Below are positions 3,696-26,923 of a DNA stretch of 41,046 nucleotides, piece by piece. The translations under genes and the position numbers were made by a program. A model generated the notes under the pieces. That model searched no databases, was not told the origin of the DNA, and saw only the letters and a list, made by a program, of their open reading frames with translations. The stretch lies in the NCBI GenBank assembly GCA_041645285.1, contig JBAZQH010000002.1:1-41046 (forward strand), written 5' to 3'. Numbering within the stretch: position 1 is the stretch's first letter; each line of letters begins with the position of its first letter. This DNA comes from Candidatus Margulisiibacteriota bacterium (GTDB lineage: Bacteria; Margulisbacteria; WOR-1; JAHJIW01).

Positions 3696-3696
3696 G

Positions 3697-4421: not shown

Positions 4422-4432
4422 AAGGTGGCCTT

Positions 4433-5038: not shown

Positions 5039-5054
5039 AAAATTAATTTAAAAA

Positions 5055-5528: not shown

Positions 5529-5608
5529 AAGCTCTTTTATCCTTTTCTTTTGGCTTAATTATACTCCATATATTTAAGTAAAGCGAGGCGTCTATACCCC
5601 TGGAGCAA

Positions 5609-5655
5609 GGGCCCGACTGTTTGAGCCCCGGCTGGCCGGGGCGAGTTTCGGGCCC
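5609..5655. other. GC-rich nested inverted repeat (two-tier hairpin) in the ruvC/rnfC divergent intergenic region
   Basis: The outer arms GGGCCCGA (5609-5616) and TCGGGCCC (5648-5655) enclose the perfect palindrome GCCCCGGC-TG-GCCGGGGC (5625-5642). Confidence 0.5.
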
Positions 5656-5666
5656 GAGCGACTCAT

Positions 5667-5695
5667 TTGATGCCCTAACTGCAAAATGATATACT
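5667..5695 (+). promoter_or_regulatory. Sigma70-like promoter of rnfC: TTGATG, 17-nt spacer, (TGa)TATACT
   Basis: The -35 box is at 5667-5672 and the extended -10 at 5687-5695. Only 10 nt separate the -10 box from the ATG, and there is no SD. Confidence 0.45.
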
Positions 5696-5705
5696 CAATC
5701 CCGCC

Positions 5706-7037: not shown

Positions 7038-7047
7038 GAAAAAAATA

Positions 7048-12080: not shown

Positions 12081-12135
12081 AACCACCACCTTTGGCAGAT
12101 AGATAAAAATTAAACAAAACCTCATGCGGATAAGA

Positions 12136-12141
12136 TATAAT
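12136..12141 (+). promoter_or_regulatory. Candidate -10 box TATAAT, 8 nt upstream of the rsmH ATG
   Basis: A perfect hexamer, but with no convincing -35 box and no SD. Confidence 0.3.
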
Positions 12142-12149
12142 TTTATTTA

Positions 12150-13088
12150 ATGGACAATTCAACTATTTACCACATCCCCGCCCTCCTGCACGAAACGGTA
12201 GCTTTCTTAGCCCCGCGCCCGGGAAAATTATTTATTGACGGCACGCTGGGCGGTGGCGGGCATACGCAAGCACTGTTGGATGCAGGAGCAAAAGTTATCG
12301 GGCTGGACCGCGACCCGGAGGCCATTGAATTTTGCAAGAAAAAATTTGTCGGAAATAAAAACCTCAAACTCATGCACGGCAACTTTGCCCGCATCGACGA
12401 ATGTTTATCTTTAAGCGGGCCTTTTTCAAAAAAAGTGGACGGGATATTGCTTGACCTGGGGGTTTCGTCGCACCAAATTGATACGCCGGAGCGTGGTTTC
12501 AGCTACTCAACTGAAGGCCCGCTTGATATGCGCATGAATCAGGGCATTTCCGCCACCGCCAAGGGCATTTTAAACCGCGCCCCACAAGAAGAGCTGGAAA
12601 AAATCTTCCGCGACTTTGGAGAAGAGCGCTTTAGCCGCCAAATTGCACGCGGCGTGGCCTTGGGACGCAAGAAAAAATATATCGGCACCACCCTGCAGCT
12701 TGTGGAAATCATAAAACATGCGGTACCCGACAAAAACCCGGCCCACGTGCGCTCATCACTGGCGCGGATTTTCCAGTCCCTGCGCATTGCCGTCAACCAG
12801 GAGCTAAAAAATCTAGCAATGTTTCTGCCGCACGCCCTGTCAATACTAAAACCGCGCGGGCGGCTGTTGATAATTTCCTATCACTCACTGGAGGACAAAA
12901 TAGTCAAAGATTTTTTCCGTCGTGAAGCCCGGGATTGCATTTGCGACGCGCGCCTGCCCGCCTGCCTCTGCGACCATAAAAAAACCTTAAAAATCTTAAC
13001 TAAAAAACCTGTTACCGCCGAGCCAGCCGAGGTAAAATTAAACCCGCGCGCGACATCTGCTAAACTGCGCGCCGCAGAAAAGTTATAA
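12150..13088 (+). CDS. rsmH: 16S rRNA (cytosine1402-N4)-methyltransferase RsmH (MraW)
   Basis: HIPALLHE...DGTLGGGGH, DRD..A, GILLDLGVSSHQID..RGFS and SYHSLEDKIVK motifs. Confidence 0.9.
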   Translation: MDNSTIYHIPALLHETVAFLAPRPGKLFIDGTLGGGGHTQALLDAGAKVIGLDRDPEAIEFCKKKFVGNKNLKLMHGNFARIDECLSLSGPFSKKVDGILLDLGVSSHQIDTPERGFSYSTEGPLDMRMNQGISATAKGILNRAPQEELEKIFRDFGEERFSRQIARGVALGRKKKYIGTTLQLVEIIKHAVPDKNPAHVRSSLARIFQSLRIAVNQELKNLAMFLPHALSILKPRGRLLIISYHSLEDKIVKDFFRREARDCICDARLPACLCDHKKTLKILTKKPVTAEPAEVKLNPRATSAKLRAAEKL

Positions 13089-13089
13089 T

Positions 13090-13353
13090 ATGAAAATTGG
13101 CCGGGCAATCATCATTTTACTGTTCATGCTAACCCTGGCAATTATCCATTTGACCGTTTTTTCCAAAAGCATTGAAATCAACTACCAGGTTGAAGAACTG
13201 AAACAAAAATTTAACCGGCTCTTATCTGAAAACCGCTCGCTGGCCGCCGCCGTTTCAAGAAAGAACTCGCTGGATTATATTGATAAAATCGCGCAGGAAA
13301 AGCTGGGGATGGTTTATCCGGAAAAGCTGAAGTATCTAAAGAAAAACTACTAA
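13090..13353 (+). CDS. ftsL: Cell division protein FtsL-like
   Basis: The ATG lies 1 nt after the rsmH stop. It has a single TM helix, then a coiled coil, then ...IDKIAQEKLGMVYP, which is the typical FtsL C-terminus. The position after rsmH is conserved. Confidence 0.65.
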   Translation: MKIGRAIIILLFMLTLAIIHLTVFSKSIEINYQVEELKQKFNRLLSENRSLAAAVSRKNSLDYIDKIAQEKLGMVYPEKLKYLKKNY

Positions 13354-13382
13354 ATCTGCGCTGTGCAAAAACAGATAACTTC

Positions 13383-15824
13383 CTAATACAATTTTAGCTG
13401 ATTCAACTGGTTTTTATTGATTGCCGGCGCCAACCCATTTTCCAGTCCCAGCGTTTTAATCATGGTAGTGCTCAAGCCAGTTAAAAAACCGCTCTTCCGG
13501 CCGTAATAGACCAAAATCGGCTCACCGCGGATTTTGGCTATATCTTTGGCAACGTCAACCGCTTTCTGGAAACCGCCCAGTTTGTCAATTAATCCCAAAT
13601 CCAGCGCCTGTTTGCCGGTCAGAATCCGGCCGTCGGCAATGGCTTTAACTTCGGCTGTAGGCAAATCCCTGCCGGACACCACTTTTTGGACAAATTCATT
13701 ATAGGTTTCAAGCTGTAAGGCATGAATTGAAGCCACTTCTTCGCTGGTCAAGGCGCGGATGCCGGAAAACATGTCGGCATACTTTCCTTCTTTTACAATT
13801 TCTTTCTTCACGCCAATTTTATCGTATAAGCCCTGCAGTGCCGGGATTTGGCCGATGACCCCAATACTGCCCGTTATGGTAGCCGGATCCGCCACAATGG
13901 AGTTGGCAGCGCTGGCAATGTAATATCCGCCGGAAGCCGCCACGTCTCCCATAGAAGCCACCACCACTTTGCCTTTTTTGCGCGCTCGCACAATTTCCTG
14001 GTAAATTTGTCCCGCCGCCACCGCCGCCCCGCCCGGACTGCTGATGCGCAAAATTATGGCCTTAACCTGGGGATCGTCCACCGCATTGCGGATATTTTCC
14101 GTAATGGAGTCCGCCCCGGTCGCCTTCCCGCCAAAAAGCAGGTTTTCCCCGCTGCCGCCAAGAGTGATTTCGCCTTCAACCTCCACCACCGCAACCTTGT
14201 TAAAATACGAGAACAAATAATCCTGCAAATCCTTTTCCGCCATTAAATCGTCAGGCCCAATCAGTTTGATATCCTCTTTTGAATCCAAAATTTCTGCCGC
14301 AATCCGGGTCGCATCTTTATAATACCCAATTTCATCCACCAGGCCGATTTTCTTGGCTTCTGCTACCCCAATGATTTGGCCGTCGCCAATATCCTTAATT
14401 TTCGCAATATCAATTTTGCGATCTGCGGCAATATCGGTCAGCATCTGCCGCTGCAAATCAGTGACAATTCCCTGTAAAATCTTTCTCTGCCCTTCGGTCA
14501 AACCGTCTTTATTCATGGAAAAGGTATCTTTATTTTTCCCGATGGCAAATATCTGCCACTCAACTCCCAGCTTTTCGTAAAGGTCTTTGACGCGGGTAAT
14601 TTCAATTTTCCTGGAAAATCCCCCAAACGATGAGCCCTGCGGTGCAATAATCTTATCCGCCACGCTGATTAAGTAATAACCGTCTCCCAGGGCCGAATCC
14701 TCAACGTAGACCACTACCTTTTTCCCTTTGCCCTTAACTTCCTGCAGGGCATCCCGGATTTCCTGCACAATCGCGGTACCGCCCAAGCCCCCGCCAAAAT
14801 CAGAGGCCTTAATCATGACACCGGAAATTCCGCTGTCGCGCGCGGCCCGGCGCAATTTGACAATAATATTTTCCAATCCCTCGCTGTAGCCGCCCAGCAA
14901 ACTGTACTGGGAGCTGCCTCCGGCAACCCCGCCGCGCAAATCAATTTCCACGTATTCTTTGGGCCCAATCAACGACTGCACCCGCTCGGTGTCTTCCCCA
15001 AGCTTCAAACTGCCCCCAAACGACTGGATGGTTCCGGCCGCTCCTCCGCAGTTTTTCATCGCGTAATCAAGCGTCAATCCCAAAATTTGCATTGAGGCGC
15101 CGGCCGTCAAAAATCCCTGGCTGCTACCCACCCTGGCTTTTAACCCCTGGGTAAGCTCCAGTTCCATCCCAAAGTGGGTGAGATTTTCACTGCGGCGGGA
15201 AGAATCAATTTCAAGGTCGCCGGCAAAAATCATGCGGTCCATCAGCGGCAGCAGCGCTACTCCCACCCGCGCCGCAGATGGTGAAACAAAACCGTGCTCC
15301 GACGCAATGTCCTGCCCCACCAAACCGATCGACAACGACGGCATAATTTTAAGGAGAATTCCCAGATCTGCCGACCAACCCTCGCCGTCGCCCGAAGACA
15401 AATTCCAGCGGGCGGTCTTATAATTTACTCCCCACTTAAACCCCCCCGTCCCCTGACTGCCAAACCCGTACATATTAAATGACCCCGACTCCAACGATGT
15501 CGATAACCCGTAACTGGCATAGCCAAAGGGACCGAGTTTTAATAAGTCAAAGCGGCTGTAAGAATAGGTGCGGCGATCCAAATCCGTGTAGCCCAGTGAA
15601 TATTCAAATCCCTGACCCGACATGGCGGCCGGATTATAGAAAATAGCGCTGGCATCACCCTCAATGGCAGTCGCCGATCCCCCCATCCCCATCGCCCTAA
15701 TGCCCATGCCCTGCTTAAAAAGGTCGTCGGTTAAAGTGGCGTAAGCGGGAGAAAAGCAGCTAATAAACAAACAACTAATGACCAATACCTGACAACTAAA
15801 GTTTTTAAATTTTTGCTTTCCCAT
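13383..15824 (-). CDS. sppA: Fusion protein: N-terminal FadL/PorV-like outer-membrane beta-barrel plus tandem S49 signal peptide peptidase (SppA 67K type)
   Basis: Signal peptide, then GIRAMGMGGSATAIEGDASAIFYNPAAM and about 280 aa rich in aromatic/Gly beta-strand pattern. Two S49 domains follow; the second carries the nucleophile motif GDVAASGGYY. SD GGGAGGAAG lies upstream. Confidence 0.8.
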   Translation of the reverse strand: MGKQKFKNFSCQVLVISCLFISCFSPAYATLTDDLFKQGMGIRAMGMGGSATAIEGDASAIFYNPAAMSGQGFEYSLGYTDLDRRTYSYSRFDLLKLGPFGYASYGLSTSLESGSFNMYGFGSQGTGGFKWGVNYKTARWNLSSGDGEGWSADLGILLKIMPSLSIGLVGQDIASEHGFVSPSAARVGVALLPLMDRMIFAGDLEIDSSRRSENLTHFGMELELTQGLKARVGSSQGFLTAGASMQILGLTLDYAMKNCGGAAGTIQSFGGSLKLGEDTERVQSLIGPKEYVEIDLRGGVAGGSSQYSLLGGYSEGLENIIVKLRRAARDSGISGVMIKASDFGGGLGGTAIVQEIRDALQEVKGKGKKVVVYVEDSALGDGYYLISVADKIIAPQGSSFGGFSRKIEITRVKDLYEKLGVEWQIFAIGKNKDTFSMNKDGLTEGQRKILQGIVTDLQRQMLTDIAADRKIDIAKIKDIGDGQIIGVAEAKKIGLVDEIGYYKDATRIAAEILDSKEDIKLIGPDDLMAEKDLQDYLFSYFNKVAVVEVEGEITLGGSGENLLFGGKATGADSITENIRNAVDDPQVKAIILRISSPGGAAVAAGQIYQEIVRARKKGKVVVASMGDVAASGGYYIASAANSIVADPATITGSIGVIGQIPALQGLYDKIGVKKEIVKEGKYADMFSGIRALTSEEVASIHALQLETYNEFVQKVVSGRDLPTAEVKAIADGRILTGKQALDLGLIDKLGGFQKAVDVAKDIAKIRGEPILVYYGRKSGFLTGLSTTMIKTLGLENGLAPAINKNQLNQLKLY

Positions 15825-15836
15825 TCTTCCTCCCGC

Positions 15837-16667
15837 TTACAAACTAACCTTAAATCCAATCATTTGCAGGGCCGGCGCAGACCCGTCGCTACGTGCCGCC
15901 ATTAATGCATACTCAACCGCAACTACGGAAATACTAACCGCCGCTCCCGCAGTCCAGCGATTTTGGTCATAGCCGCCGCGCAACTTGAACCCGGGCGTAA
16001 CAATATTTTCCAGCCCGGCATGCCCGTAAATAGTTGGGCCGGCAGAGGACAGGACATCCCTGAACTCAAAATCAACCGTGCCCACCAATGACGGGAAAAA
16101 GCGGGAAGCAATTCCCACCCGCGCGCTGGCTGGTACTCCCGTATTTTCAATTATATCCTGTAATAATATTCCCCACCGCAAAGTGCGCGAAAAATTTCCG
16201 ATCAAACCGATATCGTAACCGTAGCCGGAACTTTCAGGGGAAGCCCCGCTGGTGTTGATATTTTTATAAGTCATCCCGTAGCTGATGCCGCCGGTTCCCT
16301 GCTTCCCCGCACTGTAAGCAAAAACCTCGGCTTTTTTTCCGGTGGTATCGGTCTTTTTCCAAAAACCATACCCGAACGAATTGGCGGCAAAAAAAGTATG
16401 CTCAAAATCGGTGCTTTCACGGTAATTCAGGTCGTTGTAGCCCTTTAAAAAACCGATTCCCTGCAGCGCCAGTCCCGCCGGGTTATAAAATACCGCGGAA
16501 GGATCATCCGCCAGTGCAGTAAAGGCGCCGCCCATCGAAGCCGCCCGCAACCCGACGCCGTTTTTCAAAATCGCCACCAATAAATCATCCGCCGCCCAAA
16601 CTAAATTTGAGAGCGCTAAAAGAAGTAATAAGGTCAGTACCGTTTTCTTGAACACCGCTTTCCTCAC
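15837..16667 (-). CDS. FadL/PorV-like outer-membrane beta-barrel protein (276 aa)
   Basis: Signal peptide (..LLLLLALSNLVWA), then GLRAASMGGAFTALADDPSAVFYNPAGL. The body shows alternating Gly/aromatic beta-strand character and ends in ..IGFKVSL. GTG start. It lies 12 nt upstream of the barrel-SppA gene. Confidence 0.6.
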   Translation of the reverse strand: MRKAVFKKTVLTLLLLLALSNLVWAADDLLVAILKNGVGLRAASMGGAFTALADDPSAVFYNPAGLALQGIGFLKGYNDLNYRESTDFEHTFFAANSFGYGFWKKTDTTGKKAEVFAYSAGKQGTGGISYGMTYKNINTSGASPESSGYGYDIGLIGNFSRTLRWGILLQDIIENTGVPASARVGIASRFFPSLVGTVDFEFRDVLSSAGPTIYGHAGLENIVTPGFKLRGGYDQNRWTAGAAVSISVVAVEYALMAARSDGSAPALQMIGFKVSL

Positions 16668-16747
16668 TTGCTGAAATTTGCAAGAAACAGGTATACTTGA
16701 TACAGTTAGATTGATTATACTTTATTAAAAAATCGTAAACAACAAAT

Positions 16748-18241
16748 ATGCACAACACTCAAGAAAAATCATTAAACCAAAGCGTCAGGGTGCGTTTTGC
16801 ACCCAGTCCCACCGGCGCCCTGCATTTAGGCGGGGGCCGGACTGCGCTGTTTAATTATCTCTTTGCCAAACACCACGGCGGCCAATTTATTTTACGCATT
16901 GAAGATACCGACCAGGGGCGCTCTACCGAGGAAGCAGTCAAAACCATATTAGAAGGATTGGAATGGCTGGGGATTTACTGGGACGAGGGGCCCAAAGTTG
17001 GCGGCTCCCATGAACCTTATTGCCAAACCGGGCGCCTTAATCTTTACCATAAATACGCCCATGATTTGCTGGCCGCTGGCCGGGCCTATTATTGTTATTG
17101 CACACCGGACGAGCTGGCCGCCGCCCGCGCCCAAGCCGAAAAAGAAAAAACCGCCCCCAAATACAGCGGCCGCTGCCGGACGCTATCGCCAGAGGAAGAA
17201 AAAGCGCATCACGCAAATAAACGCACACGGGTGTTGCGCTTTAAAACTCCGGAAAGCGGACAAACGGGTTTCCCTGACCTGTGCCGCGGAGAAGTAAAAT
17301 TTGAAAATGAATTACTGGATGATTTTATAATAATTAAATCGGACGGCTTTCCGACTTATAATTTTGCGGCCGTGATTGACGACCATTTGATGGAAATTTC
17401 ACACGTCATCCGCGGCGACGACCATATCTCAAATACCCCGCGCCAAATTCAGCTCTATTTAGCCCTGGGCTGGGAACCGCCTCAATTTGGCCATCTTCCC
17501 ATGATTTTGGGCAAAGACAAAGCCCGCCTGTCAAAGCGCCACGGCGCCAAATCGGTGACCGAATACGAAAAAGAAGGATTTTTGCCGGAAGCCATGGTGA
17601 ATTTTTTGGCGCGGCTGGGTTGGGGACACCTTGACCAAGAGATTTTTTCGCGGGAAGAGCTGGTGAAATTATTTACCTTGGGCAAAGTGGCCAAAAGCCC
17701 GGCGATTTTTGACGCGGACAAACTTATTTGGTTAAATAAACATTATATTGCCCAGGCCCTGCCCGAGCGCATTTTTGATCTGTGTCTGCCCTACCTCGAA
17801 AAGGCCTATCCGCATTTTAAGCTTCATGAAAAAGAGCCACAAGCCCTGCTTTATGCGGAAAAAGTGATTGCCCTGCTCAAAGACCGCCTGCAAACCATTC
17901 CCGATATTGTGCCGCTGTCAGAATATTTCTTTAACGAAGTAGAAGCTTACGAAGAAAAAGCACGCGCAAAGTATTTTAAGGGCGAAGCAACCGTTAAAAT
18001 ATTAAACGAACTCAAGACCGCGCTGGAAGCAACCGAACCATTTGACACAGCCAATATTGAAAAAGCTTTTAAGGGGTTGGCCGAAAAATTAGGCGTAAAG
18101 TTAGGCGAAATTATTCATCCGGCCCGCCTGGCACTCACCGGCCGCGGCGAATCGCCGGGGATTTATGCGGTGGTGGAGGTGGTGGGGAAGGAAAAAACAA
18201 TAAACCGCATCGCTAAAACCTTTGCCCTCGTCTTACAATAA
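16748..18241 (+). CDS. gltX: Glutamate--tRNA ligase
   Basis: RFAPSPTGALHLGG (HIGH region), RLSKRHG (KMSKS), and a CYC...C zinc motif. The full-length protein is 497 aa. Confidence 0.92.
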   Translation: MHNTQEKSLNQSVRVRFAPSPTGALHLGGGRTALFNYLFAKHHGGQFILRIEDTDQGRSTEEAVKTILEGLEWLGIYWDEGPKVGGSHEPYCQTGRLNLYHKYAHDLLAAGRAYYCYCTPDELAAARAQAEKEKTAPKYSGRCRTLSPEEEKAHHANKRTRVLRFKTPESGQTGFPDLCRGEVKFENELLDDFIIIKSDGFPTYNFAAVIDDHLMEISHVIRGDDHISNTPRQIQLYLALGWEPPQFGHLPMILGKDKARLSKRHGAKSVTEYEKEGFLPEAMVNFLARLGWGHLDQEIFSREELVKLFTLGKVAKSPAIFDADKLIWLNKHYIAQALPERIFDLCLPYLEKAYPHFKLHEKEPQALLYAEKVIALLKDRLQTIPDIVPLSEYFFNEVEAYEEKARAKYFKGEATVKILNELKTALEATEPFDTANIEKAFKGLAEKLGVKLGEIIHPARLALTGRGESPGIYAVVEVVGKEKTINRIAKTFALVLQ

Positions 18242-19057
18242 AGCAAGAATTTTATACACCAGCCGCGCGGCCAAATAATTTGGGGCAAGCAACCCCTTAA
18301 TTGGCGCCAATTCAACCACATCAAACCCGACCACGTTTTTTTGGCGCGTGACTGCCCGGATAATATCCACTACTTGATTATAGTGCAACCCGCCCGGCTC
18401 GGGCGTACCGGTAGATGGCATCTCCGCTGGATCCAGTACATCCACGTCAAAAGAAATGTAAACGGTGTTTGAAAGTTGGCGCAAAATTGGGTTGATCGCC
18501 GCGAGAGAAATCGCGGATTGCCGTATCAGGTTATCAGTGAGATGGATCTTTTTGCTTTGTCCGGACGCTTTAGCAAAACCATATTCTTCCTGCGACATGC
18601 TCCTGACCCCCACCTGTACTACATTCGGACAAATTTCCAGCAGGCGGCGGGTCGCGCAGGCGTGGCTGTCTTTGCGGCCTTGATATTTATCTCGTAAATC
18701 GGCGTGGGCGTCAAAACACAAGATTGACAAATCCGGAAAAAATTCGCTGACCGCTTCCACCGCCGGCACCGAAATTGAATGTTCGCCGCCTAAAATAATT
18801 GGCAGTTTTTTCTTTTGTAAAATTTGGCGCACCGCCGTTTTAATTTTAGCAACAGGTAAGCGCGTTAAGTTTTTAACTTTTAGCGGCGGCAAAATTTCAA
18901 TTTGATCCAGCGGCAGATTGGTTTTGGTTTCAAGGTCAAACTCCTCAACCTGTGGCAGTGCAGATAAAATTGCCGCCGGCCCGTTTTTGGCCCCTTTGCC
19001 ATAGCAGGTAGTGGCTTCATAGGGAATCGGCAAAATAATAAATTTATTCTTTGGCAT
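18233..19057 (-). CDS. speB: Agmatinase (ureohydrolase family)
   Basis: The arginase-fold Mn ligand motifs GGEHS, FDAHADL and SFDVDVLDP are all present. I prefer the ATG at 19057 (6 nt after the upstream stop) over the TTG at 19063. Confidence 0.85.
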   Translation of the reverse strand: MPKNKFIILPIPYEATTCYGKGAKNGPAAILSALPQVEEFDLETKTNLPLDQIEILPPLKVKNLTRLPVAKIKTAVRQILQKKKLPIILGGEHSISVPAVEAVSEFFPDLSILCFDAHADLRDKYQGRKDSHACATRRLLEICPNVVQVGVRSMSQEEYGFAKASGQSKKIHLTDNLIRQSAISLAAINPILRQLSNTVYISFDVDVLDPAEMPSTGTPEPGGLHYNQVVDIIRAVTRQKNVVGFDVVELAPIKGLLAPNYLAARLVYKILALL

Positions 19058-19063
19058 AAACAA

Positions 19064-19513
19064 TTAATTGACTGCCAAGCGCTGCGGGGAAAATTCATTG
19101 CCGATGGATCCGGCCGGTTGAGAAAATTCGTTGTCTTTATTCATCAGTTCCGCTTCAAAGGTTTGGGCCTCAAACAAACTTACCAGATAACTGGCAACTC
19201 TGCCGGCATCAAAAGTTGCGGCCGAAAAAAGGTCTACAAAAACATGCCGTTTGGTCGGAAAAGTATGGAGCGTAATGTGCGCATCCTTCGCCAAAACTAC
19301 ACCCGAGATACCGGTTTCATTTTCGGTTTTGGCCGGATACCGGTAAACACACGGCGGCATCAATTGGGTCAGGTTAAATTTGGCCGGAAATTTTTCCAGG
19401 GTTTCAAAAATAAAATCCCGGTCTGCCAGTTTCCCGGATGGACACCCGTAACAATCCAAGAGCAGATGGGACCCAATTCCAAGTTCGGCAATTTCAGTTT
19501 GAACCGCAGGCAT
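19064..19513 (-). CDS. S-adenosylmethionine decarboxylase (SpeD/SpeH class 1) fold protein that appears to lack the self-processing Ser
   Basis: GSHLLLDCYGC...GISGVVLAKDAHITLHTFP...VDLFSAA aligns by eye with the G.H...D..GC...G.SGVV...ESH..IHTWPE...D.F.CG pattern. The ES site reads DA and the Cys reads Ala. SD GAGGAAG plus a near-consensus promoter lie upstream. Confidence 0.7.
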   Translation of the reverse strand: MPAVQTEIAELGIGSHLLLDCYGCPSGKLADRDFIFETLEKFPAKFNLTQLMPPCVYRYPAKTENETGISGVVLAKDAHITLHTFPTKRHVFVDLFSAATFDAGRVASYLVSLFEAQTFEAELMNKDNEFSQPAGSIGNEFSPQRLAVN

Positions 19514-19546
19514 AACACTTCCTCAACTAAGGTGTATTTACGTGAG

Positions 19547-19575
19547 ATTTTAGAGTAAATTCAGAGGGATTGCAA
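19547..19575 (-). promoter_or_regulatory. Sigma70-like promoter of the speD-like/speB operon: TTGCAA, 17-nt spacer, TAAAAT
   Basis: Read on the minus strand, the -35 box is at 19575-19570 and the -10 box at 19552-19547. The leader carries a GAGGAAG SD. Confidence 0.5.
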
Positions 19576-19590
19576 GCTGACGAAAACTAC

Positions 19591-21804
19591 TTAGTTACTG
19601 ACTGAGGCAATCAATTCCCCGCTTAGTTTTTTCCAGCTCCCGGCCCGGGCATCGTAAATATCCACCCCGGCTCCCTGGATATAAAGGAATTTTCCGTTGC
19701 CCAAAACGTAAACATCAATCTTTGAGTTTTTGTCGCTTTTGGCTTTCCCGACTATATCGGTGCCTTCGTGCGCGCGCAGGTACGCCCTTAATTTATTGAG
19801 ATTGACCTTTGCCCCCGGGACCGGCTTAACGGCGGCGGATTTTGCGCGGGCAACCTCAGTATTATCCTGTGCCCAGGTCTGGTATTTTATTGCCGGTTTT
19901 ACATCTTGCGCCATCCGGTGGCGATGATTAATGGTCTTGTTGGGCATATAAACCAAGGCCTCTTCCGGCGCCGCATAACCAATCTCAAAGTCGAGCAAGC
20001 GGCTGATCAGGGCCCGGCCAATGCCGGTCTTTTCAAGCATCGAAGTAAACTGGGCGCGGTTCACGCCGGTTTTTTCCATTAACTTCCCATCGGTAATGTA
20101 ATCCAGCATCCCGGCTTTTTTGGTTACCACCAGCTGCGGAGCGGCCCAATGTGAAAGCGCTACGTCCTGAAACGGTTTTTCGGTGGTTTTGTCCGTATAA
20201 GTAATGTCATTATCATAGCGGGCAATCACGACCGCGCCTTCCGCGCGATTAATCTCTTTGTTGGGCTTAAAAGTGCCGTCGGGGTACCCCTCGGTCAAAG
20301 CATAATCTTTGGCAACTTTAAGATATTTATTGGCCCAATGGTCAGCCGCAATATCTTTAAAAACTTTACCGTACACCGTCGGGGTTTCCAGGTTTGTGGC
20401 GCGCACCAGGATCGTAGTTAATTCCACTCTGGATAACACACTGTCCGGACGGAAGCTCCCGTCGGGGTAACCATCAATTAATCCCAGTGTTCCAAAATAT
20501 TCAATCCCCGCGTGCGCCAAGGTATTGTCATTGACGTCCGCAAAAGTGCGGACACGCAAAATACGTTTTTGCTGTTCGGCCAAGGCCCCGTCGTTGCGCT
20601 CGGCAACAATCTCCAACAAATTCTTGCCGATTTTCAGAGGGATTTCCGCCGAAAAAGTATTATCCGGTGCCAGCGCCACCCGGTGGTCGTTGACCCGCAA
20701 GCTGGTCAGCGGGCGGCTTTTTAGCCCTTCCACCCGTCCGGTTACTTTAATACTATTATCTTTAGTGACAACTTTATCCGCCGGCGCATCCACAAAAAGG
20801 TTAAACGGTGATTGCGCCTCCGGCACCAAGGATACGGAAAAATAATGGGTGGCATTTTCAGAATAACTGGAATAAGGATGATAAGCATAGTCAAAGGCTA
20901 TTCCCTTGTACCGGACACCCAGGCCGCCGCACAGATTGGTGACTACCCCGTTTCCCGCGCTCGGGTCCTGGTCCAACCCCATCCTTACCGCCAAAATATC
21001 ATTTGGCCAAAATTCCCCGCCCAAATGCATGGCCATCGGCATGGCCTCATCCACGTACAGGTCTGCGTCCAAACCAACCGATAAATTAAAATCCGATTTT
21101 TTCAATGCGCTTTCCTGATCACCCAGGATTTGTACTTTACTGCCCAGTTTTGAAACAGAATTAATTCCCTCTTCATAACCATTGGCAAACGTCACTTTTC
21201 CGCCCGCGCTGGCAGGCAATAAATCCTGCTGGGTATAGCCCAAGCTTAACCAGGGGTTGGCCTGATAAAGCAAACTTAAGTCCATATCAAAACCGCCGCC
21301 CGATCCCTCCGCCAGCGCATCCGACCCGGAAAGCGCATAACTAAAATACTTTAAATTTGTGCCAAGGTAAACGTTGTCAGAAAGCAGGGAGCTGAGGCTA
21401 TTGGCTTTTACCCCATAGGATAGAAAATATACCGCGCGGTTATAGGTTCCGGTTCCGGCCGAACTCCCGTCTGCATTTCTCAAATCAATATCCGCCGTAC
21501 CCATCCCCACGTACCCCGCCCCCACCGTGTGTCCCGCCGCTACCGGATAGGCCCCACCCAAAAGCATAAAATTAATATCATTCATCAGGTTGGCCTGCAT
21601 GTTGGTTGCCGCAATCCCTTCCAGCCGGCCTAACCCCGCCGGGTTTACAAACAGGGCATCCGCATTTTCGGCATAGCCAACATAAGTCCGCCCCATCCCC
21701 AATGACCGCGCCCCCACACCAATTGCCAATGGGTCAGTGATTGCCGCCGCCGGCAAAGCCAGCAAAAGCAAAATTATAATTACGGCTAACGTTTGGTTTT
21801 TCAT
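19591..21804 (-). CDS. Outer-membrane FadL/PorV-like beta-barrel, then an Ig-like domain, three SLH domains and an unknown C-terminal domain
   Basis: Signal peptide LLLLALPAAA, then GARSLGMGRTYVGYAENADALFVNPAGL and about 300 aa of barrel-like sequence. The three SLH repeats are FADV..GLIDGYPDGSFRPD, FKDI..HWA..GYPDGTFKPN and FQDV..HWA. The ATG at 21804 lies 2 nt after the adhesin stop, with a GAGGAG SD. Confidence 0.75.
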   Translation of the reverse strand: MKNQTLAVIIILLLLALPAAAITDPLAIGVGARSLGMGRTYVGYAENADALFVNPAGLGRLEGIAATNMQANLMNDINFMLLGGAYPVAAGHTVGAGYVGMGTADIDLRNADGSSAGTGTYNRAVYFLSYGVKANSLSSLLSDNVYLGTNLKYFSYALSGSDALAEGSGGGFDMDLSLLYQANPWLSLGYTQQDLLPASAGGKVTFANGYEEGINSVSKLGSKVQILGDQESALKKSDFNLSVGLDADLYVDEAMPMAMHLGGEFWPNDILAVRMGLDQDPSAGNGVVTNLCGGLGVRYKGIAFDYAYHPYSSYSENATHYFSVSLVPEAQSPFNLFVDAPADKVVTKDNSIKVTGRVEGLKSRPLTSLRVNDHRVALAPDNTFSAEIPLKIGKNLLEIVAERNDGALAEQQKRILRVRTFADVNDNTLAHAGIEYFGTLGLIDGYPDGSFRPDSVLSRVELTTILVRATNLETPTVYGKVFKDIAADHWANKYLKVAKDYALTEGYPDGTFKPNKEINRAEGAVVIARYDNDITYTDKTTEKPFQDVALSHWAAPQLVVTKKAGMLDYITDGKLMEKTGVNRAQFTSMLEKTGIGRALISRLLDFEIGYAAPEEALVYMPNKTINHRHRMAQDVKPAIKYQTWAQDNTEVARAKSAAVKPVPGAKVNLNKLRAYLRAHEGTDIVGKAKSDKNSKIDVYVLGNGKFLYIQGAGVDIYDARAGSWKKLSGELIASVSN

Positions 21805-21806
21805 TC

Positions 21807-24800
21807 TCACCTGCTCCTCACTACTACTAACTTACCTTTATACAAAATCTGCCGATGCGTCAGGTCAATTACCCGATATGGGAACAATCCGTTGCCAATC
21901 AAACTGCCAAATTCGTTTACGCCGTCCCAGGAAACTGCATTGTTTCCTTCCTGCCCTTCAAAAATGATGGATTTAATCAGGCGCGCATTTTCATCATAAA
22001 CGCTGATTTGGATTTGGGTGGCCTCGCTTAAGCCAACCAAAAAAGTAATAGGATTAACTGATGGGTCAGACGGGTTGGGATACACATACCCTTCCGCCAA
22101 AGCTTCGGTTATAATATTAAATGTTTCCGTGGCTTCGTTGCCGGCAAGGTCTCGGGCAGTGATGGTCACGGGAGTGGTGCCGGTGCCAATTTGCGCTGAA
22201 CCTAAAGTGGTGTAGCGGATATCATAAGCATTTGAACTAGTATTGGCCGTATCGGAATTGGCACCCGCCGAATTAACCGGCGCAGCCGAGGCCGCCACGC
22301 TCAATGCCGCCCCATTGTTAATTTTGATGTTTATATCAGAGCTGGAAATACCTGACCCGGAATCAGTGATACTGGCATAAATAACCGGGCTGGAAGAATG
22401 GATTACTCCCAAATTAACCACGCCATCGGTACACTCAACCGCATCCACCTTGATGCTATCGATAACCGGAGCGTTTTGGTCAATGGAAAAACTAAACGGC
22501 ACAATTTCACTAAGGTTCCCCGCCCAATCAACCGCGTAAACGCTGTACGTAAAACTTCCGTCTTCGGTAATCGTAACTACCGTTGCATCATCCGCTATTT
22601 CAACGGCGGTACCGTTAGCGGTAGTATATACAATTTTTGCTATACCCGAACCTGTATCCGAGGCCTCAAGATTGACGATCACTTTTGAGCGGTAATAACC
22701 GTTATTCCCCTCAATTCCCAACACCGTGGCGCTGACCAGCGGCGGCTCACTGTCCGGGATTGCGCTTACCCGTACATTCCAACTTGCACTGGCGCTGTCG
22801 CCAAATTGGTCGGTCACAATTAAGGTTATCTGCGCATCTCCTGCCGTGGTTGCGGTATAAACTACCTGTGCCGGGTTGGTGGAAGAAGAAGTTATTCTGC
22901 CGGCGGTGGTAGACCAGAAATAATTAAGTGCATCTCCGTCCGGATCGTAAGCCGCCACGGTAAATCCGGGCTGGGCGCCAACCGTAAATACTTGATCGCC
23001 TTCTGGGGCGCACGCAGTAATGATTGGCGCACGGTTGGTGTTATTTACAACCAAAATAAATTCTTCGGTTGCAACGTTCTCGCCGTCTGATACCAAAACC
23101 TGCAAAGAGTAAACGCCGCTGGCGTCATAGGGAAGCGGGCTCGTAGTGCTCATGACGCCGTCGCCGGAAATTGTCAGCCAGGACGGATGATTAAACAAAC
23201 TGTAAGATAAAACGTCACCATCTGCGTCGCTGGCCACAACACTATACTGGAAAGTTGCCGCCTCGGTGGCAGTAAGCGTTCCAATGGTTTCGATTTCCGG
23301 CGGTTGATTAGCATGCGGCAGATCATTGTCGGCCGTAACGTTTATGGTAATCACGCCAGAATCTGTGCCGCCGTTGCCGTCATTCACCTGGTACCCCAAC
23401 AAATCTGTTCCGAAATAATTTGCGTTGGGAGTATAGATATAATCCGCGCCGCCGTTGACCGCAACCACCGAACCATCAGCCGGCAAACTATAGATAGAAT
23501 ACGACAACGTATCACCATCTGGATCCGAGCCCGGCAAAGTGAATGTCACCGGCGTATCTTCAGCAGTTGTCACGATTGCATCTGATGCAACCGGCGCATG
23601 GTTGATCGTGCTGACAACAATTTCAAACGACTGGGTAGCTTCCGCCTGCCCATCATTTACGGTCAATTTAAGTGGATAAATGCCCGGATCCATCGGTGTT
23701 CCGCTCAATGTGCCCGTGCCATCACCGTTATCACTAAACGTCAACCAATTGGGCTTGTCAACTGCAGACATTAATAATGTATCTGCATCCACATCTGCGG
23801 CAATAACCAGATAGGTATACAAGTCCATCGTGTAAGCCACCGTAACCGGAACGCTGGTAAACTCCGGCGCATCATTGACCGCAGCAATGGTTATGGTTAC
23901 CGTAGCCGTCCTGGATACTACATCACCATCCGTTGCCAAATATGTGAATGAGTCGTCGCCGTTATAACTTGCGGACGGAGTATAAGTAAGATTGGGTGCG
24001 GTGCCGCTTAAAACTCCATGTAATGGCGGTTCGTAATGGTAGGTTAAAACCGCACTGTCAATATCGGAGCCAATCAATAAAATAGGTACTGGGGCCTCCT
24101 CACCAGTACTTACGGAGATATCGCTCGCCACTGGCGGATCATTTACCGGGTTAATTTTTACTGTTACTTCTGCGGTGGCAGACCCCCCCTGGCCATCTTC
24201 TACCAAATAGATAAATCTTTCATTGTCCCCGTACCAATCCTGGTTAGGGGTATAAATAATTGTGGTTTCGCTTTCCAGGGGACCATCGGGAAGGACAAAT
24301 ACCGCAGCGCCATGCACCGGCACTGTTAAAAAGGAATACTGTAAAACATCCTCGTCCGGATCCCACGCAGACACAACTTGCGCAGTTGGAACATCTTCAA
24401 CTCCCGCCAGGGAACATCGCAATGCGATCGGGGCATTATTAATATTCTTTACCGTGACGGTAAATTGCCGGCTAACCGTAGCAGTATTTGAGCCGTCCCG
24501 CAAGGTTATATAAAAAGAATACGCCGTATCTTCAGAAACCGACGGTGCCGTACCGGAAATTGTGGCGGTCTTATCTCCATTGTCAGTTAATGTCAGCCAG
24601 GACGGTAATCCGTCGCTCCCAATTCTTAAGGTATCCCCGGCATCGACATCATCAGCAGTGACGGTCGCGGCATAAGCCGCCAACTCATTAACCGAGGGCA
24701 GCGCAGTGGTAACAAAGGTCGGGTCATCGTTTACTGCATTGATTGTAATATTTATCCGAACTTCAGCATATTGAGAACCTTTATCCCCGCCGGTAAAAAC

Positions 24801-25103
24801 CCTAACAACAAAAGAATCTGATCCATAGTAATTTGGTCCAGGAGTATAAGTAATCTTTGTATTAGTAGCATCTACCGCAAAGGTACCTTTGGTTGGGCTA
24901 GAAACGGTTGCGGAATAATAGACGGATGAAGGTAGCCCACTGGCTTGAGCTAAGTCCGATTGTGATATTTCTACCGCAACATCTTCATTGGTCGTTTTAT
25001 TAATATCTGCCGCCAAAGCCGGCGAGGAAAAAACAGCAGTAAAAATACCCAAACAGGCAATACTTAATACTAACGTTCTTGAGATTTTTAATCTTCTAAA
25101 CAT
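21807..25103 (-). CDS. Large secreted adhesin: alternating cadherin-like/tandem-95-type and He_PIG (dystroglycan-type) Ig repeats, further Ig-like domains, and a C-terminal T9SS-CTD/FlgD-Ig-like domain
   Basis: The ATG at 25103 gives the signal peptide MFRRLKISRTLVLSIACLGIFTAVFSSPALA and is preceded by a GAGG SD. Repeat ends recur: VNDDPTF, INNAPIA, VNDPPVA, VNDAPEF, INHAPVA, NTNRAPI. The motif LPSWLTLTDNGD..ISGT occurs three times. The tail is YPNPSDP...QISVYDENARLIKSI...VSWDGVNEFG..GLFPYRV...KLVVVR. Confidence 0.8.
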   Translation of the reverse strand: MFRRLKISRTLVLSIACLGIFTAVFSSPALAADINKTTNEDVAVEISQSDLAQASGLPSSVYYSATVSSPTKGTFAVDATNTKITYTPGPNYYGSDSFVVRVFTGGDKGSQYAEVRINITINAVNDDPTFVTTALPSVNELAAYAATVTADDVDAGDTLRIGSDGLPSWLTLTDNGDKTATISGTAPSVSEDTAYSFYITLRDGSNTATVSRQFTVTVKNINNAPIALRCSLAGVEDVPTAQVVSAWDPDEDVLQYSFLTVPVHGAAVFVLPDGPLESETTIIYTPNQDWYGDNERFIYLVEDGQGGSATAEVTVKINPVNDPPVASDISVSTGEEAPVPILLIGSDIDSAVLTYHYEPPLHGVLSGTAPNLTYTPSASYNGDDSFTYLATDGDVVSRTATVTITIAAVNDAPEFTSVPVTVAYTMDLYTYLVIAADVDADTLLMSAVDKPNWLTFSDNGDGTGTLSGTPMDPGIYPLKLTVNDGQAEATQSFEIVVSTINHAPVASDAIVTTAEDTPVTFTLPGSDPDGDTLSYSIYSLPADGSVVAVNGGADYIYTPNANYFGTDLLGYQVNDGNGGTDSGVITINVTADNDLPHANQPPEIETIGTLTATEAATFQYSVVASDADGDVLSYSLFNHPSWLTISGDGVMSTTSPLPYDASGVYSLQVLVSDGENVATEEFILVVNNTNRAPIITACAPEGDQVFTVGAQPGFTVAAYDPDGDALNYFWSTTAGRITSSSTNPAQVVYTATTAGDAQITLIVTDQFGDSASASWNVRVSAIPDSEPPLVSATVLGIEGNNGYYRSKVIVNLEASDTGSGIAKIVYTTANGTAVEIADDATVVTITEDGSFTYSVYAVDWAGNLSEIVPFSFSIDQNAPVIDSIKVDAVECTDGVVNLGVIHSSSPVIYASITDSGSGISSSDINIKINNGAALSVAASAAPVNSAGANSDTANTSSNAYDIRYTTLGSAQIGTGTTPVTITARDLAGNEATETFNIITEALAEGYVYPNPSDPSVNPITFLVGLSEATQIQISVYDENARLIKSIIFEGQEGNNAVSWDGVNEFGSLIGNGLFPYRVIDLTHRQILYKGKLVVVRSR

Positions 25104-25226: not shown

Positions 25227-25865
25227 ATGCCGGAAAATCTCCAACAAATCCAGCGGGATGCAATGGTTGAGGTTCAGCTCCACGGCCGCGGCATTAGCGA
25301 CAAAAGAGTATTGCAGGCCTTCCGCCGGGTTCCCCGCCATTTTTTTATACCTAAAAATATGGCGAATGAGGCCTATTTTGACTGCGCCCTCCCCATCGGC
25401 AACGGGCAAACCATTTCCCAACCCTACATGGTAGCTATCATGACCGAATTATTGAAACTAACCGGGAAAGAGACTGTCCTTGAAATTGGCACCGGCTCCG
25501 GCTATCAGGCCGCAATTCTTTGTGAACTGGCAAAACACGTTATTTCGCTGGAAAGGATTCCGGATTTAGCCGACCACGCTCGCCGTCTGCTGGTTGAACT
25601 GGGATACAAAAATTTTGAGGTGATGGTGGCCGACGGCACCCAGGGATGGAAGGAGAAAGCCCTTTACGATCGCATTTTGGTAACCGCCGCAGCGGAAAAA
25701 ATTCCGCAACCACTGATTGACCAGTTAAAAGAAGGCGGCCGGTTAATCATTCCGCTGGGCCAACCGGATCTGCAAATTTTAACCATTGTCGAGAAAATCC
25801 AAGGGAAGATAGTCACCCAACAAAGCATCGGGTGCGTATTTGTGCCGCTGATTTCGGAAACATAG
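25227..25865 (+). CDS. pcm: Protein-L-isoaspartate O-methyltransferase
   Basis: GQTISQPYMVAIMTELL and VLEIGTGSGYQAA (SAM motif I), and ...RILVTAAA...L..GGRLIIP are canonical Pcm motifs. Confidence 0.9.
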   Translation: MPENLQQIQRDAMVEVQLHGRGISDKRVLQAFRRVPRHFFIPKNMANEAYFDCALPIGNGQTISQPYMVAIMTELLKLTGKETVLEIGTGSGYQAAILCELAKHVISLERIPDLADHARRLLVELGYKNFEVMVADGTQGWKEKALYDRILVTAAAEKIPQPLIDQLKEGGRLIIPLGQPDLQILTIVEKIQGKIVTQQSIGCVFVPLISET

Positions 25866-25920: not shown

Positions 25921-26799
25921 ATGCGCGGCACAAACAAAAAGATACTGGGCGTCATCGGCGATCCAATTTCCCACACCCTTTCCCCCGCCATGCACAACGC
26001 CGCCCTCAAAGCTTTAAAGTTAGACGCCGAGATGGAATATAAGGCCTTTCACGTCAAACCCGGTGATCTGAAAAATTTCATCAACACCCTGCGCCAAAAA
26101 GGATATTTGGGCATCAACGTTACCGTCCCGCATAAAGTTGCCGTCATGGAACACCTGGACGAAATCACCAAATTTGCCAAACTGATCGGCGCGGTAAATA
26201 CGATAAAAAATGAAGACGGAAAACTGGTGGGGTATAACACCGACGGCCCGGGGTTTTTGGAAGCGATCAAACATAAATTAAGCTTTAATCCGACCGGCAA
26301 AAAGGTGGTTTTATTGGGGGCCGGCGGCGCGGCGCGCGCGGTGGGAATGATTTTAGCCGAAAACCAGGCCGCGCAAATTGCAATTTTTGATATTGATGAA
26401 CAAAAGACGGAGACCCTGGCGCAGCAAATCACCTCAAATTTCAAAACCAAAGCCGTCTGCCTGCCATCTAAAAACAATGAGTTGGCTGGCTATATTGCCG
26501 ATTGCGACTTATTGGTCAACGCCACACCCATTGGCATGCACCCATTAGAAAAGGCCTCCCCCTTAGGCACATTAGAACTTATCCCGCCCAGGCAGGCCGC
26601 TGACACATTATATGTATACGACCTGGTTTATGTGCCGAAAGAAACTCTCCTCATCCAGCAAGCCCGATCGGCCGGCGCCATTGCCGCCAGCGGGCTTTCG
26701 ATGCTGGTATACCAGGGTGCACTGGCTTTCACCATTTTTACCGGTCTCCCCGCCCCCGTCGGCGTGATGGAACAAGCTGCCGAAAAAGCCCTTACGTGA
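25921..26799 (+). CDS. aroE: Shikimate dehydrogenase
   Basis: GVIGDPISHTLSPAMHN, GINVTVPHK, NTDG.GF, and LLGAGGAARAV (Rossmann motif). Confidence 0.9.
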   Translation: MRGTNKKILGVIGDPISHTLSPAMHNAALKALKLDAEMEYKAFHVKPGDLKNFINTLRQKGYLGINVTVPHKVAVMEHLDEITKFAKLIGAVNTIKNEDGKLVGYNTDGPGFLEAIKHKLSFNPTGKKVVLLGAGGAARAVGMILAENQAAQIAIFDIDEQKTETLAQQITSNFKTKAVCLPSKNNELAGYIADCDLLVNATPIGMHPLEKASPLGTLELIPPRQAADTLYVYDLVYVPKETLLIQQARSAGAIAASGLSMLVYQGALAFTIFTGLPAPVGVMEQAAEKALT

Positions 26800-26923
26800 C
26801 GAAATCCACTACGTTTCCCAGCTAATTTCATCTATCTCCCGCGCACGTTTGGCCTGGCAAGAAAATTGCTTCAGGTTAGATTGAAAGACCGGTGCCAAAT
26901 TGTCACCGGTTCAAAACCTGAAA

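Follow-up and report, generated by a model that had tools for sequence, protein, structure and literature searches.

A CTD-tailed adhesin and a putative PorV/PorQ-family, SLH-fused outer-membrane anchor encoded by a coupled gene pair in Margulisiibacteriota

Within a 41-kb window, by which the whole stretch of analysed DNA is meant, from a bacterium of the Margulisiibacteriota (kingdom Bacillati, sister group of Cyanobacteria), the region spanning positions 13383-25103 carries four genes, here designated A to D, all located on the minus strand. Gene D (21807-25103) encodes a secreted adhesin of 1098 amino acids (aa) of the Big_9/cadherin-like type, tailed by a C-terminal domain (CTD) related to type IX secretion system (T9SS) CTDs. 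Gene C (19591-21804) specifies a protein of 737 aa, counted from its ATG, in which a PorV/PorQ-like barrel is followed by one immunoglobulin-like (Ig) and three SLH domains, with a further small domain at the C-terminus. On the strength of sequence comparisons, it is rather probable that D and C constitute a cognate pair of a CTD surface protein and its PorV/PorQ-family anchor. By analogy with described systems, D would be displayed on C, and C would tie this complex and the outer membrane to the cell wall, with the binding, the exposure and the attachment to the wall all being inferred. The two genes are translationally coupled, and the order of a CTD gene followed by a barrel gene is conserved over many genomes and phyla, among them many for which type IX secretion is not known, even when the passengers are unrelated. 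The other two genes, A and B, which encode two further PorV-like barrels, are tied to the D-C pair by paralogy and proximity only.

Coupling of CTD genes with barrel genes

The D-C junction reads ...gtgaGGAGcagg TGA ga ATG, leaving a gap of 2 nucleotides (nt) between the stop codon of D and the ATG of C, with the Shine-Dalgarno sequence of C (GGAG) located within the last codons of D and a GTG at position 21810. The B-A junction is TAA gcGGGAGGaaga ATG, with a 12-nt spacer containing GGGAGG. Gene coordinates and both junctions had been given in an earlier note made from the sequence alone, and direct reading of the sequence bore them out, as it did the proposed adjacency of the adhesin and barrel-SLH genes, except that the adhesin is 1098 and not 1099 aa long, a product that gene callers also predict in public assemblies. 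The window belongs to a metagenome contig of 89 kb (ENA ERZ27249422 k141_503568), present also as JGI 3300028028. Plausible Sec signal peptides are present at the N-terminus of all four products, that of D being MFRRLKISRT...ALA/AD.

The passenger part of D is composed of tandem-95/Big_9, cadherin-like, He_PIG, PKD and OmpL47-type domains, and is followed at the extreme C-terminus by a domain of the sorting/anchoring type (aa ~1007-1098; positions 21810-22085, minus strand) with the motifs YPNP ... WDG ... GNGLF and KLVVVRSR as its last residues. With TIGR04183 (Por_Secre_tail), a score of 26.5 bits was obtained at aa 1007-1060, which passes the cut-off of 23. The score of 25 bits with FlgD_ig falls slightly short of the cut-off of 27, and the Pfam Por_Secre_tail model stays under its cut-off when D is searched by itself. 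The T9SS-type CTD or FlgD-Ig tail that had been suspected on the adhesin is hence recognised, and its C-terminal position and YPNP/GNGLF/KLVVVR motifs, together with the TIGR04183 score, are those of a type A CTD. Among 20 related CTDs from different phyla, Pfam identifies FlgD_ig in all 20 and Por_Secre_tail in 16, and the CTD of D aligns with the tails of the upstream partners in loci L005 and L007 described below, having motifs in common with them. When a profile of these 20 CTDs was compared with the PDB, the best match was PorU (6za2, residues 1060-1154, E 1.2e-9), followed by PorZ (5m11, residues 670-755, E 4.3e-7), and matches to CTDs of cleaved cargo (RgpB, 8glj_D) were weak or marginal. 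Among T9SS proteins, PorU and PorZ are the two known to keep their CTDs, by which they are seated on PorV and PorQ, and it is this non-cleaved type to which the CTD of D appears closest. As far as one account of the system goes, PorU, PorZ, PorQ and PorV make up the T9SS attachment complex (PMC11205867). In giant cargo proteins of three other loci (L146:1-7968, L171:1-7869 and L080:276-9902), FlgD_ig-like repeats are numerous in the interior of the chain and obtain 10-45 bits on the CTD model, with the terminal copy reaching 48-104 bits depending on the CTD model used. The CTD belongs to a repeated Ig family, as its specialised terminal member.

The pairing of D and C recurs in relatives. In L005/L006 (Margulisbacteria, GCA_018825025.1, at 57% identity), an 838-aa Big_9/cadherin protein is followed 3 nt downstream by a barrel-SLH gene, and the order adhesin, barrel-SLH, speD, speB, gltX, 270-aa barrel and 805-aa barrel-SppA reproduces the whole arrangement of the four-gene region. 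In L007 (Saganbacteria), a 973-aa TIG/fn3/CoaZ protein overlaps the start of the barrel-SLH gene; its passenger is unrelated to D, yet its tail passes TIGR04183 at 28.1 bits. A barrel-only alignment scan with one genome per species yielded >469 relatives, the best 80 of which were examined. These comprise Margulisbacteria and Saganbacteria and, at 25-30% identity, Riflebacteria, Poribacteria, Elusimicrobia, KSB1, Ignavibacteria, Zixibacteria, Latescibacteria, Eisenbacteria, Firestonebacteria and others. A second, independent set consisted of 80 metagenome loci on which the hidden Markov model (HMM) used had not been trained. Open reading frames (ORFs) were called in the loci and assigned with HMMs built for this purpose, giving a pooled sample of 150 barrels.

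Where the upstream sequence suffices, the gene immediately preceding the barrel on the same strand ends in a CTD in the majority of loci. In the pooled sample such a gene lies directly upstream of 69 of the 150 barrels and one gene away in 11 more, as compared to a CTD-ending upstream neighbour for 31 of 1321 other genes in the same loci. This corresponds to an odds ratio of 35 with a median intergenic distance of -1 nt and p ~1e-51, a value that overstates the significance because the loci are phylogenetically related, and which is indicative only. An upstream CTD gene is found for 40-43% of barrels in the genome set, with the seed (3-sequence) and the iterated HMM alike, and for 33-49% in the metagenome set, where the background is 0.8-3.2%; overall, the CTD-then-barrel adjacency is enriched 15-40 times over background. 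Taken over the 144 related loci, the share of PorV-like barrels directly preceded by a CTD-ending gene on the same strand is 43-49%, as against 1-3% for the other genes. The pairing spans about nine phylum-level groups, including Margulisbacteria, Poribacteria, Elusimicrobia and KSB1, with one small gene intervening between the CTD gene and the barrel in Riflebacteria and with cargo sizes ranging from ~220 aa to >3200 aa. Several genomes encode more than one barrel-SLH protein, and many of these paralogues are accompanied by a separate CTD gene, as seen in JAHJIW01 (L009, L024 and L026) and JAQVPA01 (L016, L017 and L028). Gene context of this kind suggests that PorV/PorQ-like barrels work with CTD proteins and provides a strong argument for a functional link between D and C. 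The coupling proposed earlier for the CTD protein and barrel-SLH is supported by the retention of the pair with differing passengers and by its enrichment across phyla; as regards co-occurrence in related genomes, CTD/barrel pairs do recur, but the barrel-S49 gene is not consistently tied to them.

Some of the cargo operons contain additional genes. In three Saganbacteria loci (L007:5157-7093, L010:1275-3273 and L031:666-2604), two conserved proteins of ~370 and ~260 aa, with no match in Pfam or NCBIfam, are encoded upstream of the cargo/barrel-SLH genes. In many Margulis/Saganbacteria operons, namely those of L010, L015, L016, L018, L020, L021, L022 and L031, a second large secreted-looking protein (~1050-1300 aa) immediately precedes the CTD protein, 3-4 kb upstream of the barrel, and no CTD is detectable in it. 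Such operons look like multi-protein surface-layer operons.

Architecture of the barrel-SLH protein and comparison with known envelope systems

The barrels of A, B and C exhibit 30-32% pairwise identity and the common motif GxGxRxxGMG...(D/N)xxAxFxNPAG, whose conserved NPA is the hatch motif of FadL. In C this N-terminal hatch reads GVGARSLGMG...NPAGL, and FadL 'delta NPA' mutant entries are found among its structural matches. A jackhmmer search started with the barrel of A recovered B, C and every collected PorV_fam barrel over the full length, B with 244 bits. With the PorV_fam model NF033709 (cut-off 90), the orthologue of C from L007 scores 94.0 bits, and A and B score 29 and 36 bits, respectively, over the N-terminal part only. 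Pfam gave no match for A, B or C with FadL (PF03349), Toluene_X or TraF_2, with none at E <= 0.1 for the first two. The family placement hence rests on NCBIfam, jackhmmer and the fold, and kinship of these barrels with FadL/Toluene_X is visible at the fold level only.

In the AlphaFold2 (AF2) model of A (pLDDT 88.1, pTM 0.82), exactly 14 barrel strands are present, and in that of C (pLDDT 82.9), about 14 strands are observed at aa 65-326, following the hatch motif within the predicted barrel domain (aa ~22-330; positions 20815-21741, minus strand). The best Foldseek match of C is PorV from the SprA complex of F. johnsoniae (6h3i_F, E 4.8e-10, TM-score 0.69 on the target), with FadL and TodX being the next best, and for A the best barrel match is PorV 8gl6_F, ranked below SppA and ClpP matches. 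Thus, with the NPA(G) hatch in all three proteins and the strand count in the models of A and C, a FadL-type 14-strand barrel is indicated. The proposal of three paralogous, differently built PorV/FadL-type barrels holds on identity, shared motif, jackhmmer recovery and fold, and the strand number that had been asked of AlphaFold is now available. The anticipated FadL and TraF_2 profile matches were absent.

The remainder of C is built from modules with known counterparts. An Ig-like linker at aa ~335-417 (positions 20554-20802, minus strand), predicted to be periplasmic, matches the Glucodextran_B type (PF09136) with 34.5 bits and is modelled by AF2 as a beta sandwich. It is followed by three Pfam SLH domains at aa ~420-603 (19996-20547, minus strand), which are predicted to bind a peptidoglycan-linked secondary cell wall polymer. 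The profile of C matches the SLH trimer of Sap from B. anthracis (3pyw) with an E value of 1.3e-20 at profile positions 420-593, AF2 likewise models three SLH units at aa 420-603, and Foldseek aligns this part with TM-scores of 0.83 to 3pyw and 0.70-0.76 to SpaA-SLH with its pyruvylated ligand. The three SLH domains first noted in C are therefore present, and its predicted anchoring to the wall via SLH is well founded in both sequence and model. A barrel of 14 strands has its two ends on the periplasmic side, which places the Ig-SLH part of C on the same side as the wall polymer. The SLH units are followed by a disordered linker of ~55 aa and an extra small alpha/beta domain (aa 660-737; positions 19594-19827, minus strand) with no family match, which is also present in the two closest relatives of C (P0002 and P0003) but is lacking in the majority of orthologues (~610-670 aa). 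About 35 orthologues of C were found in metagenome-assembled genomes labelled Candidatus Margulisbacteria, Saganbacteria or WOR-1, and the SLH extension is essentially limited to this Margulis/Saganbacteria clade; elsewhere the barrel occurs alone or with TPR extensions.

The closest parallel to the D-C pair is offered by PorU-PorV and PorZ-PorQ of Porphyromonas gingivalis, with which it shares, as judged from sequence and fold, a FadL-type 14-strand PorV/PorQ-family barrel and a partner whose Ig-like CTD would be retained. It differs from them in its host, a Margulisbacterium of the Bacillati and not a member of the Fibrobacteres-Chlorobi-Bacteroidetes (FCB) group, without T9SS core genes seen in the window, in the adjacency and translational coupling of the two genes, in the passenger of D, which is an adhesin and not a sortase or a carrier of lipopolysaccharide, and in the periplasmic extension of C with Ig and three SLH domains. 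A second parallel is provided by PorE-PorP-PG1035, where the barrel carrying a CTD protein is bound to a peptidoglycan-binding periplasmic protein, and by the SprF-SprB complexes (PMC9143113), for which cognate PorP/SprF shuttles are encoded beside their type B cargo (PMC12618676). In common with these systems, cargo and dedicated barrel are encoded by linked genes, several cargo/barrel paralogue pairs occur per genome, and, as proposed for D-C, the cargo would stay bound to the barrel on the surface and the barrel would connect to a peptidoglycan-binding module. However, the CTD of D is type A/FlgD_ig-like and not type B, C is assigned to the PorV/PorQ family and not to PorP, and the module for wall binding forms part of the barrel protein itself and is of the SLH and not the OmpA_C-like type.

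From these parallels, the following sequence of events is proposed. D and C would both be exported by Sec, and C would take its place in the outer membrane with its two termini facing the periplasm, where its SLH trimer would bind a pyruvylated polymer on the peptidoglycan, as in Sap, SpaA and OmpM. Once outside, D would attach to the extracellular face of C by non-covalent docking of its CTD and would remain there, as PorU and PorZ do on PorV and PorQ or type B cargo on PorP/SprF. A mechanical chain of adhesin, outer-membrane barrel and cell wall would result, in which C, as one polypeptide, would do the job of both the PorP barrel and the peptidoglycan-binding PorE.

The architecture of C also invites comparison with OmpM, the SLH-porins and Slp of diderm Terrabacteria, in which an outer-membrane barrel and a periplasmic SLH domain likewise occur in one polypeptide within the same part of the tree. 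SLH-based outer-membrane tethering together with CsaB is reported in diderm Terrabacteria, including Margulis/Saganbacteria, and SLH is the characteristic module for wall attachment in these bacteria (bioRxiv 10.1101/2021.05.31.446380). On this basis C could be mainly a tether between outer membrane and wall, a channel for hydrophobic substrates of the FadL type, or both, as a counterpart of OmpM, with the adjacency of D reflecting co-expression. FadL and TodX as the next-best folds and the FadL NPA hatch motif are compatible with such a role, as is the finding that roughly half of the barrels have no upstream CTD gene. Nevertheless, this explanation is held to be quite unlikely, since the coupled adjacency persists as passengers change and extends to SLH-less barrels in other phyla, several barrel-SLH paralogues per genome occur, many with a CTD gene of their own, and PorV rather than FadL is best by both sequence model and fold. 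While C does unite SLH and a barrel in one protein, the N-terminal SLH, coiled coil and C-terminal porin of OmpM-type tethers are not found in it: the order is reversed, with the barrel N-terminal (aa 22-330) and SLH C-terminal (aa 420-603), three SLH domains replace one SLH domain plus coiled coil, the barrel is of the plugged FadL/PorV type and not a porin, and its gene is paired with that of a CTD protein.

Several findings weigh against the cognate pair of D and C. Besides the barrels without a CTD neighbour and the relatedness of the loci, C itself scores 89.0 bits on the PorV_fam model NF033709 over profile positions 7-323 of 326, that is, 1 bit short of the cut-off. The equivalog models do not recognise it, with just 29.3 bits for PorV (NF033710, cut-off 250) and no match for PorQ (NF033711, cut-off 220), on which B scores 17.3 bits. 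Furthermore, the search for T9SS core genes in the window yielded no outer-membrane translocon, so that surface exposure of D is assumed, and in two Poribacteria-type loci (L067 and L085) the genes for barrel-SppA, pcm, a PorV_fam barrel and a CTD protein of 467-469 aa follow one another, an arrangement that allows for some connection between SppA and CTD proteins.

Export route of the adhesin

None of the T9SS core components PorK/L/M/N (GldK-N), Sov/SprA, PorU, PorZ, PorT and PorW is encoded among the ORFs of the 41-kb window, in agreement with the earlier note, which had seen no PorK/L/M/N/Sov/PorU-like gene there. This result bears on whether a canonical or near-canonical T9SS is encoded elsewhere in the genome, in which case C would be its PorV/PorQ-type shuttle or anchor and D an ordinary cargo. 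Such an explanation would accommodate the TIGR04183 score of the CTD and the PorV_fam membership of the barrels, and many of the phyla that carry the pair (KSB1, Ignavibacteria, Zixibacteria and Latescibacteria) belong to the FCB group, in which T9SS is known (PMC11205867). Against it stand the lack of PorK/L/M/N/U/Z/Sov genes in the window and the distribution of the system, which is described as that of the FCB superphylum in a review (PMC11205867) and which surveys, as far as their statements go, confine to Bacteroidota or the FCB group (PMC4793230; PMC11205867). The host phylum is placed within the Cyanobacteriota/Melainabacteria group of Bacillati, distant from Bacteroidota, and no paper linking T9SS with Margulisbacteria was found in the literature searched. 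For Poribacteria, moreover, a study of 2014 reported TIGR04183 proteins but none of the Por structural genes (PMC3909097). A T9SS elsewhere in the genome is hence considered unlikely.

A possible trace of a translocon, which would speak for a T9SS elsewhere, nevertheless emerged among neighbouring genes in the form of a family of ~1000-aa outer-membrane proteins. In the Margulisbacterium locus L080, the gene for such a protein (L080:10826-13816), which shows a weak match to the SprA/Sov model, comes immediately behind those for a CTD giant of 3208 aa and a PorV-like barrel of 306 aa, and an order of giant CTD protein, PorV-like barrel and ~1000-aa protein is likewise observed in L171. Other members are L065:1612-4719, L171:10001-13309, L169, L170 and L172-L175 (10001-~13100), and the family comprises >100 Margulis/Saganbacteria clusters with 36-71% identity (one divergent at 30%), all of them named 'hypothetical', with one UniRef entry designated 'SprA N-terminal domain-containing'. 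The TIGR04189 match is present in 20 of 38 members with a best E value of 4.7e-12, but covers just ~95 residues with scores far under the cut-off of 200. No match to SprA was obtained when a profile of the family was compared with the PDB, nor did the Pfam model SprA_N give one. The family was therefore not upheld as bona fide SprA, the local TIGR04189 match alone remaining, and it is taken as a lead for the translocon and nothing more.

The gene for the ~1000-aa protein is preceded by a PorV-like barrel in four of nine distinct contexts, with ruvC and ruvA as its constant neighbours. In other Margulisbacteria the order is mdh-fumAB-SBP-HAD-ruvA-ruvC followed by the ~1000-aa protein. The same run is present in the window at positions 343-5528, but rnfC/D/G (5706-8476) occupy the ruvC-proximal site and the ~1000-aa family is not encoded in the window. 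In the stretch concerned, positions 4433-7037 of the window, this gene is not at its usual place; it has been either lost or moved in this organism.

In diderm Terrabacteria and several other non-FCB phyla, among them Margulisbacteria, Riflebacteria, Poribacteria and Elusimicrobia, CTD proteins may instead be displayed via a cognate barrel and another outer-membrane transporter without a canonical T9SS, a possibility that is put forward tentatively and that, on present evidence, is more doubtful than the pairing of D and C itself. In that case, the barrel encoded after each cargo would recognise the CTD and keep the cargo on the surface, being bolted down by SLH domains in Margulisbacteria, and the candidates for the transporter would be the ~1000-aa protein with the SprA-like segment or the adjacent type IV pilus/type II secretion system genes.

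As regards the latter genes, aroE and a T2SSE-family ATPase adjoin the D-C pair in the window (25921-27991). In Riflebacteria the order is giant CTD protein, ~230-aa TPR-like protein, PorV-like barrel, STAS, aroE, pilB, pilT ... pilD, and aroE/pilus-type synteny was found in L040, L046, L050, L052, L054, L055, L058 and L074 (~11400-15400). This synteny with type IV pilus genes may represent an ancestral gene order or a functional hint.

The barrel-SppA fusion, neighbouring genes and wider meaning

Gene A (13383-15824, minus strand) encodes an 813-aa protein with a signal peptide, a 14-strand PorV-like barrel (aa ~30-290; positions 14955-15737, minus strand) and a tandem S49 SppA part (aa ~300-800; positions 13425-14927, minus strand) with two Peptidase_S49 domains. 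It is preceded by gene B (15837-16667, minus strand), whose 276-aa product has a signal peptide and a stand-alone PorV-like barrel, and whose stop codon lies 12 nt before the ATG of A. The SppA part scores 296 bits on SppA_dom (cut-off 155) and 293.7 bits on TIGR00705 of the 67K type, slightly below the cut-off of 311.45, and its AF2 model superimposes on E. coli SppA (3bf0) with a TM-score of 0.85 on the target. The fusion of a barrel to a tandem S49 peptidase, as first noted, is thereby corroborated. As in E. coli SppA (protease IV, 67K), a tandem S49 arrangement with a Ser/Lys dyad (S631/K432) is present; alignment to 3bf0 shows that the catalytic Lys and Ser are kept, and both are invariant among 43 fusion proteins, which suggests that A is probably an active serine peptidase. 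In contrast to E. coli SppA, the N-terminal inner-membrane helix is lacking and is replaced by a signal peptide and a 14-strand PorV-like outer-membrane barrel. From the 14-strand topology it follows that the C-terminal SppA domains, like the N-terminus, would be periplasmic, in accordance with the placing suggested before, and A is, as modelled, probably a periplasm-facing, outer-membrane-anchored SppA. The architecture is widespread. An exhaustive phmmer search gave 160 sequences (the best 150 representatives plus 10 cluster members), among which the barrel is present in 126; most of the best 150 representatives have 780-830 aa and align from residue ~15-50 to ~780, and the sources label the fusion proteins merely as 'SppA' or 'protease-4'.

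The earlier note had further assumed that the barrel-tethered peptidase removes the CTD, so that the whole 12-kb region would act as one pathway in which a barrel receives the CTD, A cuts it in the manner of PorU and barrel-SLH anchors the product. All parts do lie within 12 kb in the window and in L005, the catalytic residues of A are conserved, and the contiguous genes of L067 and L085 mentioned above leave some room, thin as it is, for a link between SppA and CTD proteins. CTD cleavage in T9SS occurs on the cell surface, and the SppA domains of A are predicted on the opposite side of the membrane; the SppA fold (3bf0) forms a self-compartmentalised bowl suited to short peptides, and the CTD of D resembles the retained PorU/PorZ type. 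In Margulisbacteria loci L089-L093, moreover, A is surrounded by housekeeping genes (gltX, A, ftsL, rsmH, trpC), with C/D missing throughout and B present in some cases and not in others: in L089 and L091 it lies between gltX and ftsL with no B, CTD gene or barrel-SLH nearby, and in L172 it is absent from the gltX-ftsL site. Among five metagenome loci with the fusion, a B-like neighbour was found in L093 only. A and B together with C and D were consequently rejected as one obligatory module, and a single pathway for the region is regarded as very unlikely. In view of the housekeeping context and the thin connection to CTD proteins, A, with B, is treated as an outer-membrane SppA and not as a CTD peptidase, B being a lineage-specific duplicate barrel next to it. 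Of the overall module imagined at the outset, the part comprising cargo, anchor and wall is thus supported by comparative genomics and fold, and the protease part is not.

The other surroundings of the four genes are of a different nature. Between B and C lie gltX, speB (agmatinase family) and speD (AdoMet decarboxylase), and the remaining genes of the window are housekeeping genes: mdh, fumAB, ruvAC, rnfCDG, trpCF, rsmH, gltX, speBD, pcm and aroE, along with genes for the T2SSE ATPase, plsC, radA and clpC. In L005 an extra 270-aa ORF (L005:14315-15127), which has no family or barrel-HMM match and no counterpart in the window, is inserted between speB and gltX. The pcm gene (protein-L-isoaspartate methyltransferase), whose product has no signal peptide, is found beside PorV-like barrels in Margulisbacteria (window 25227-25865; L005:12215-12859) and between barrel-SppA and the stand-alone barrel in Poribacteria-type loci (L067:9113-9784 and L085:9342-9983; also L087:1-645). 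A giant ORF at 34816-41034 (minus strand), of >2072 aa and running off the end of the window, has a helical-looking C-terminus and no Pfam/NCBIfam match; it was considered as a second CTD cargo and rejected, having no CTD and no family match. No tRNA genes or Rfam families were found in the window. Promoter-like sites are about as frequent as in shuffled controls, and terminator-like sites show a modest excess (27 versus 18.7 in shuffled controls, standard deviation 4.5); neither scan delimits operons.

The module had initially been called undescribed. This requires qualification, as several orthologues of C are already named 'PorV/PorQ family protein' by NCBI, but no paper in the literature searched connects PorV to SLH, T9SS to Margulisbacteria or SppA to PorV. 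What is new here is that the proposed T9SS-style CTD/PorV-family anchoring is fused with an SLH tether and occurs in a phylum from which T9SS is not known, and D-C is one example of a broad group of cargo-barrel operons that has apparently not been described. As a separate matter, the SppA anchored in the outer membrane represents a widespread but unstudied form of a textbook protease.

Physiologically, a barrel fused to SLH in the sister lineage of Cyanobacteria means that one protein would link adhesin, outer membrane and wall, and with C a second architecture, in reversed order, joins the OmpM-type tethers that are central to ideas on envelope evolution in Terrabacteria. CTDs of the T9SS type are annotated on many proteins from phyla in which no T9SS has been found, and the route by which such proteins reach the surface and are retained there has been a question since the Poribacteria study of 2014 (PMC3909097). 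The locus and its relatives offer a concrete and testable handle on it, as each CTD protein tends to bring its own PorV-like barrel. Should display independent of T9SS prove true, such pairs would represent a minimal or ancestral form of the cargo-handling end of T9SS and would explain the orphan TIGR04183 proteins of Poribacteria.

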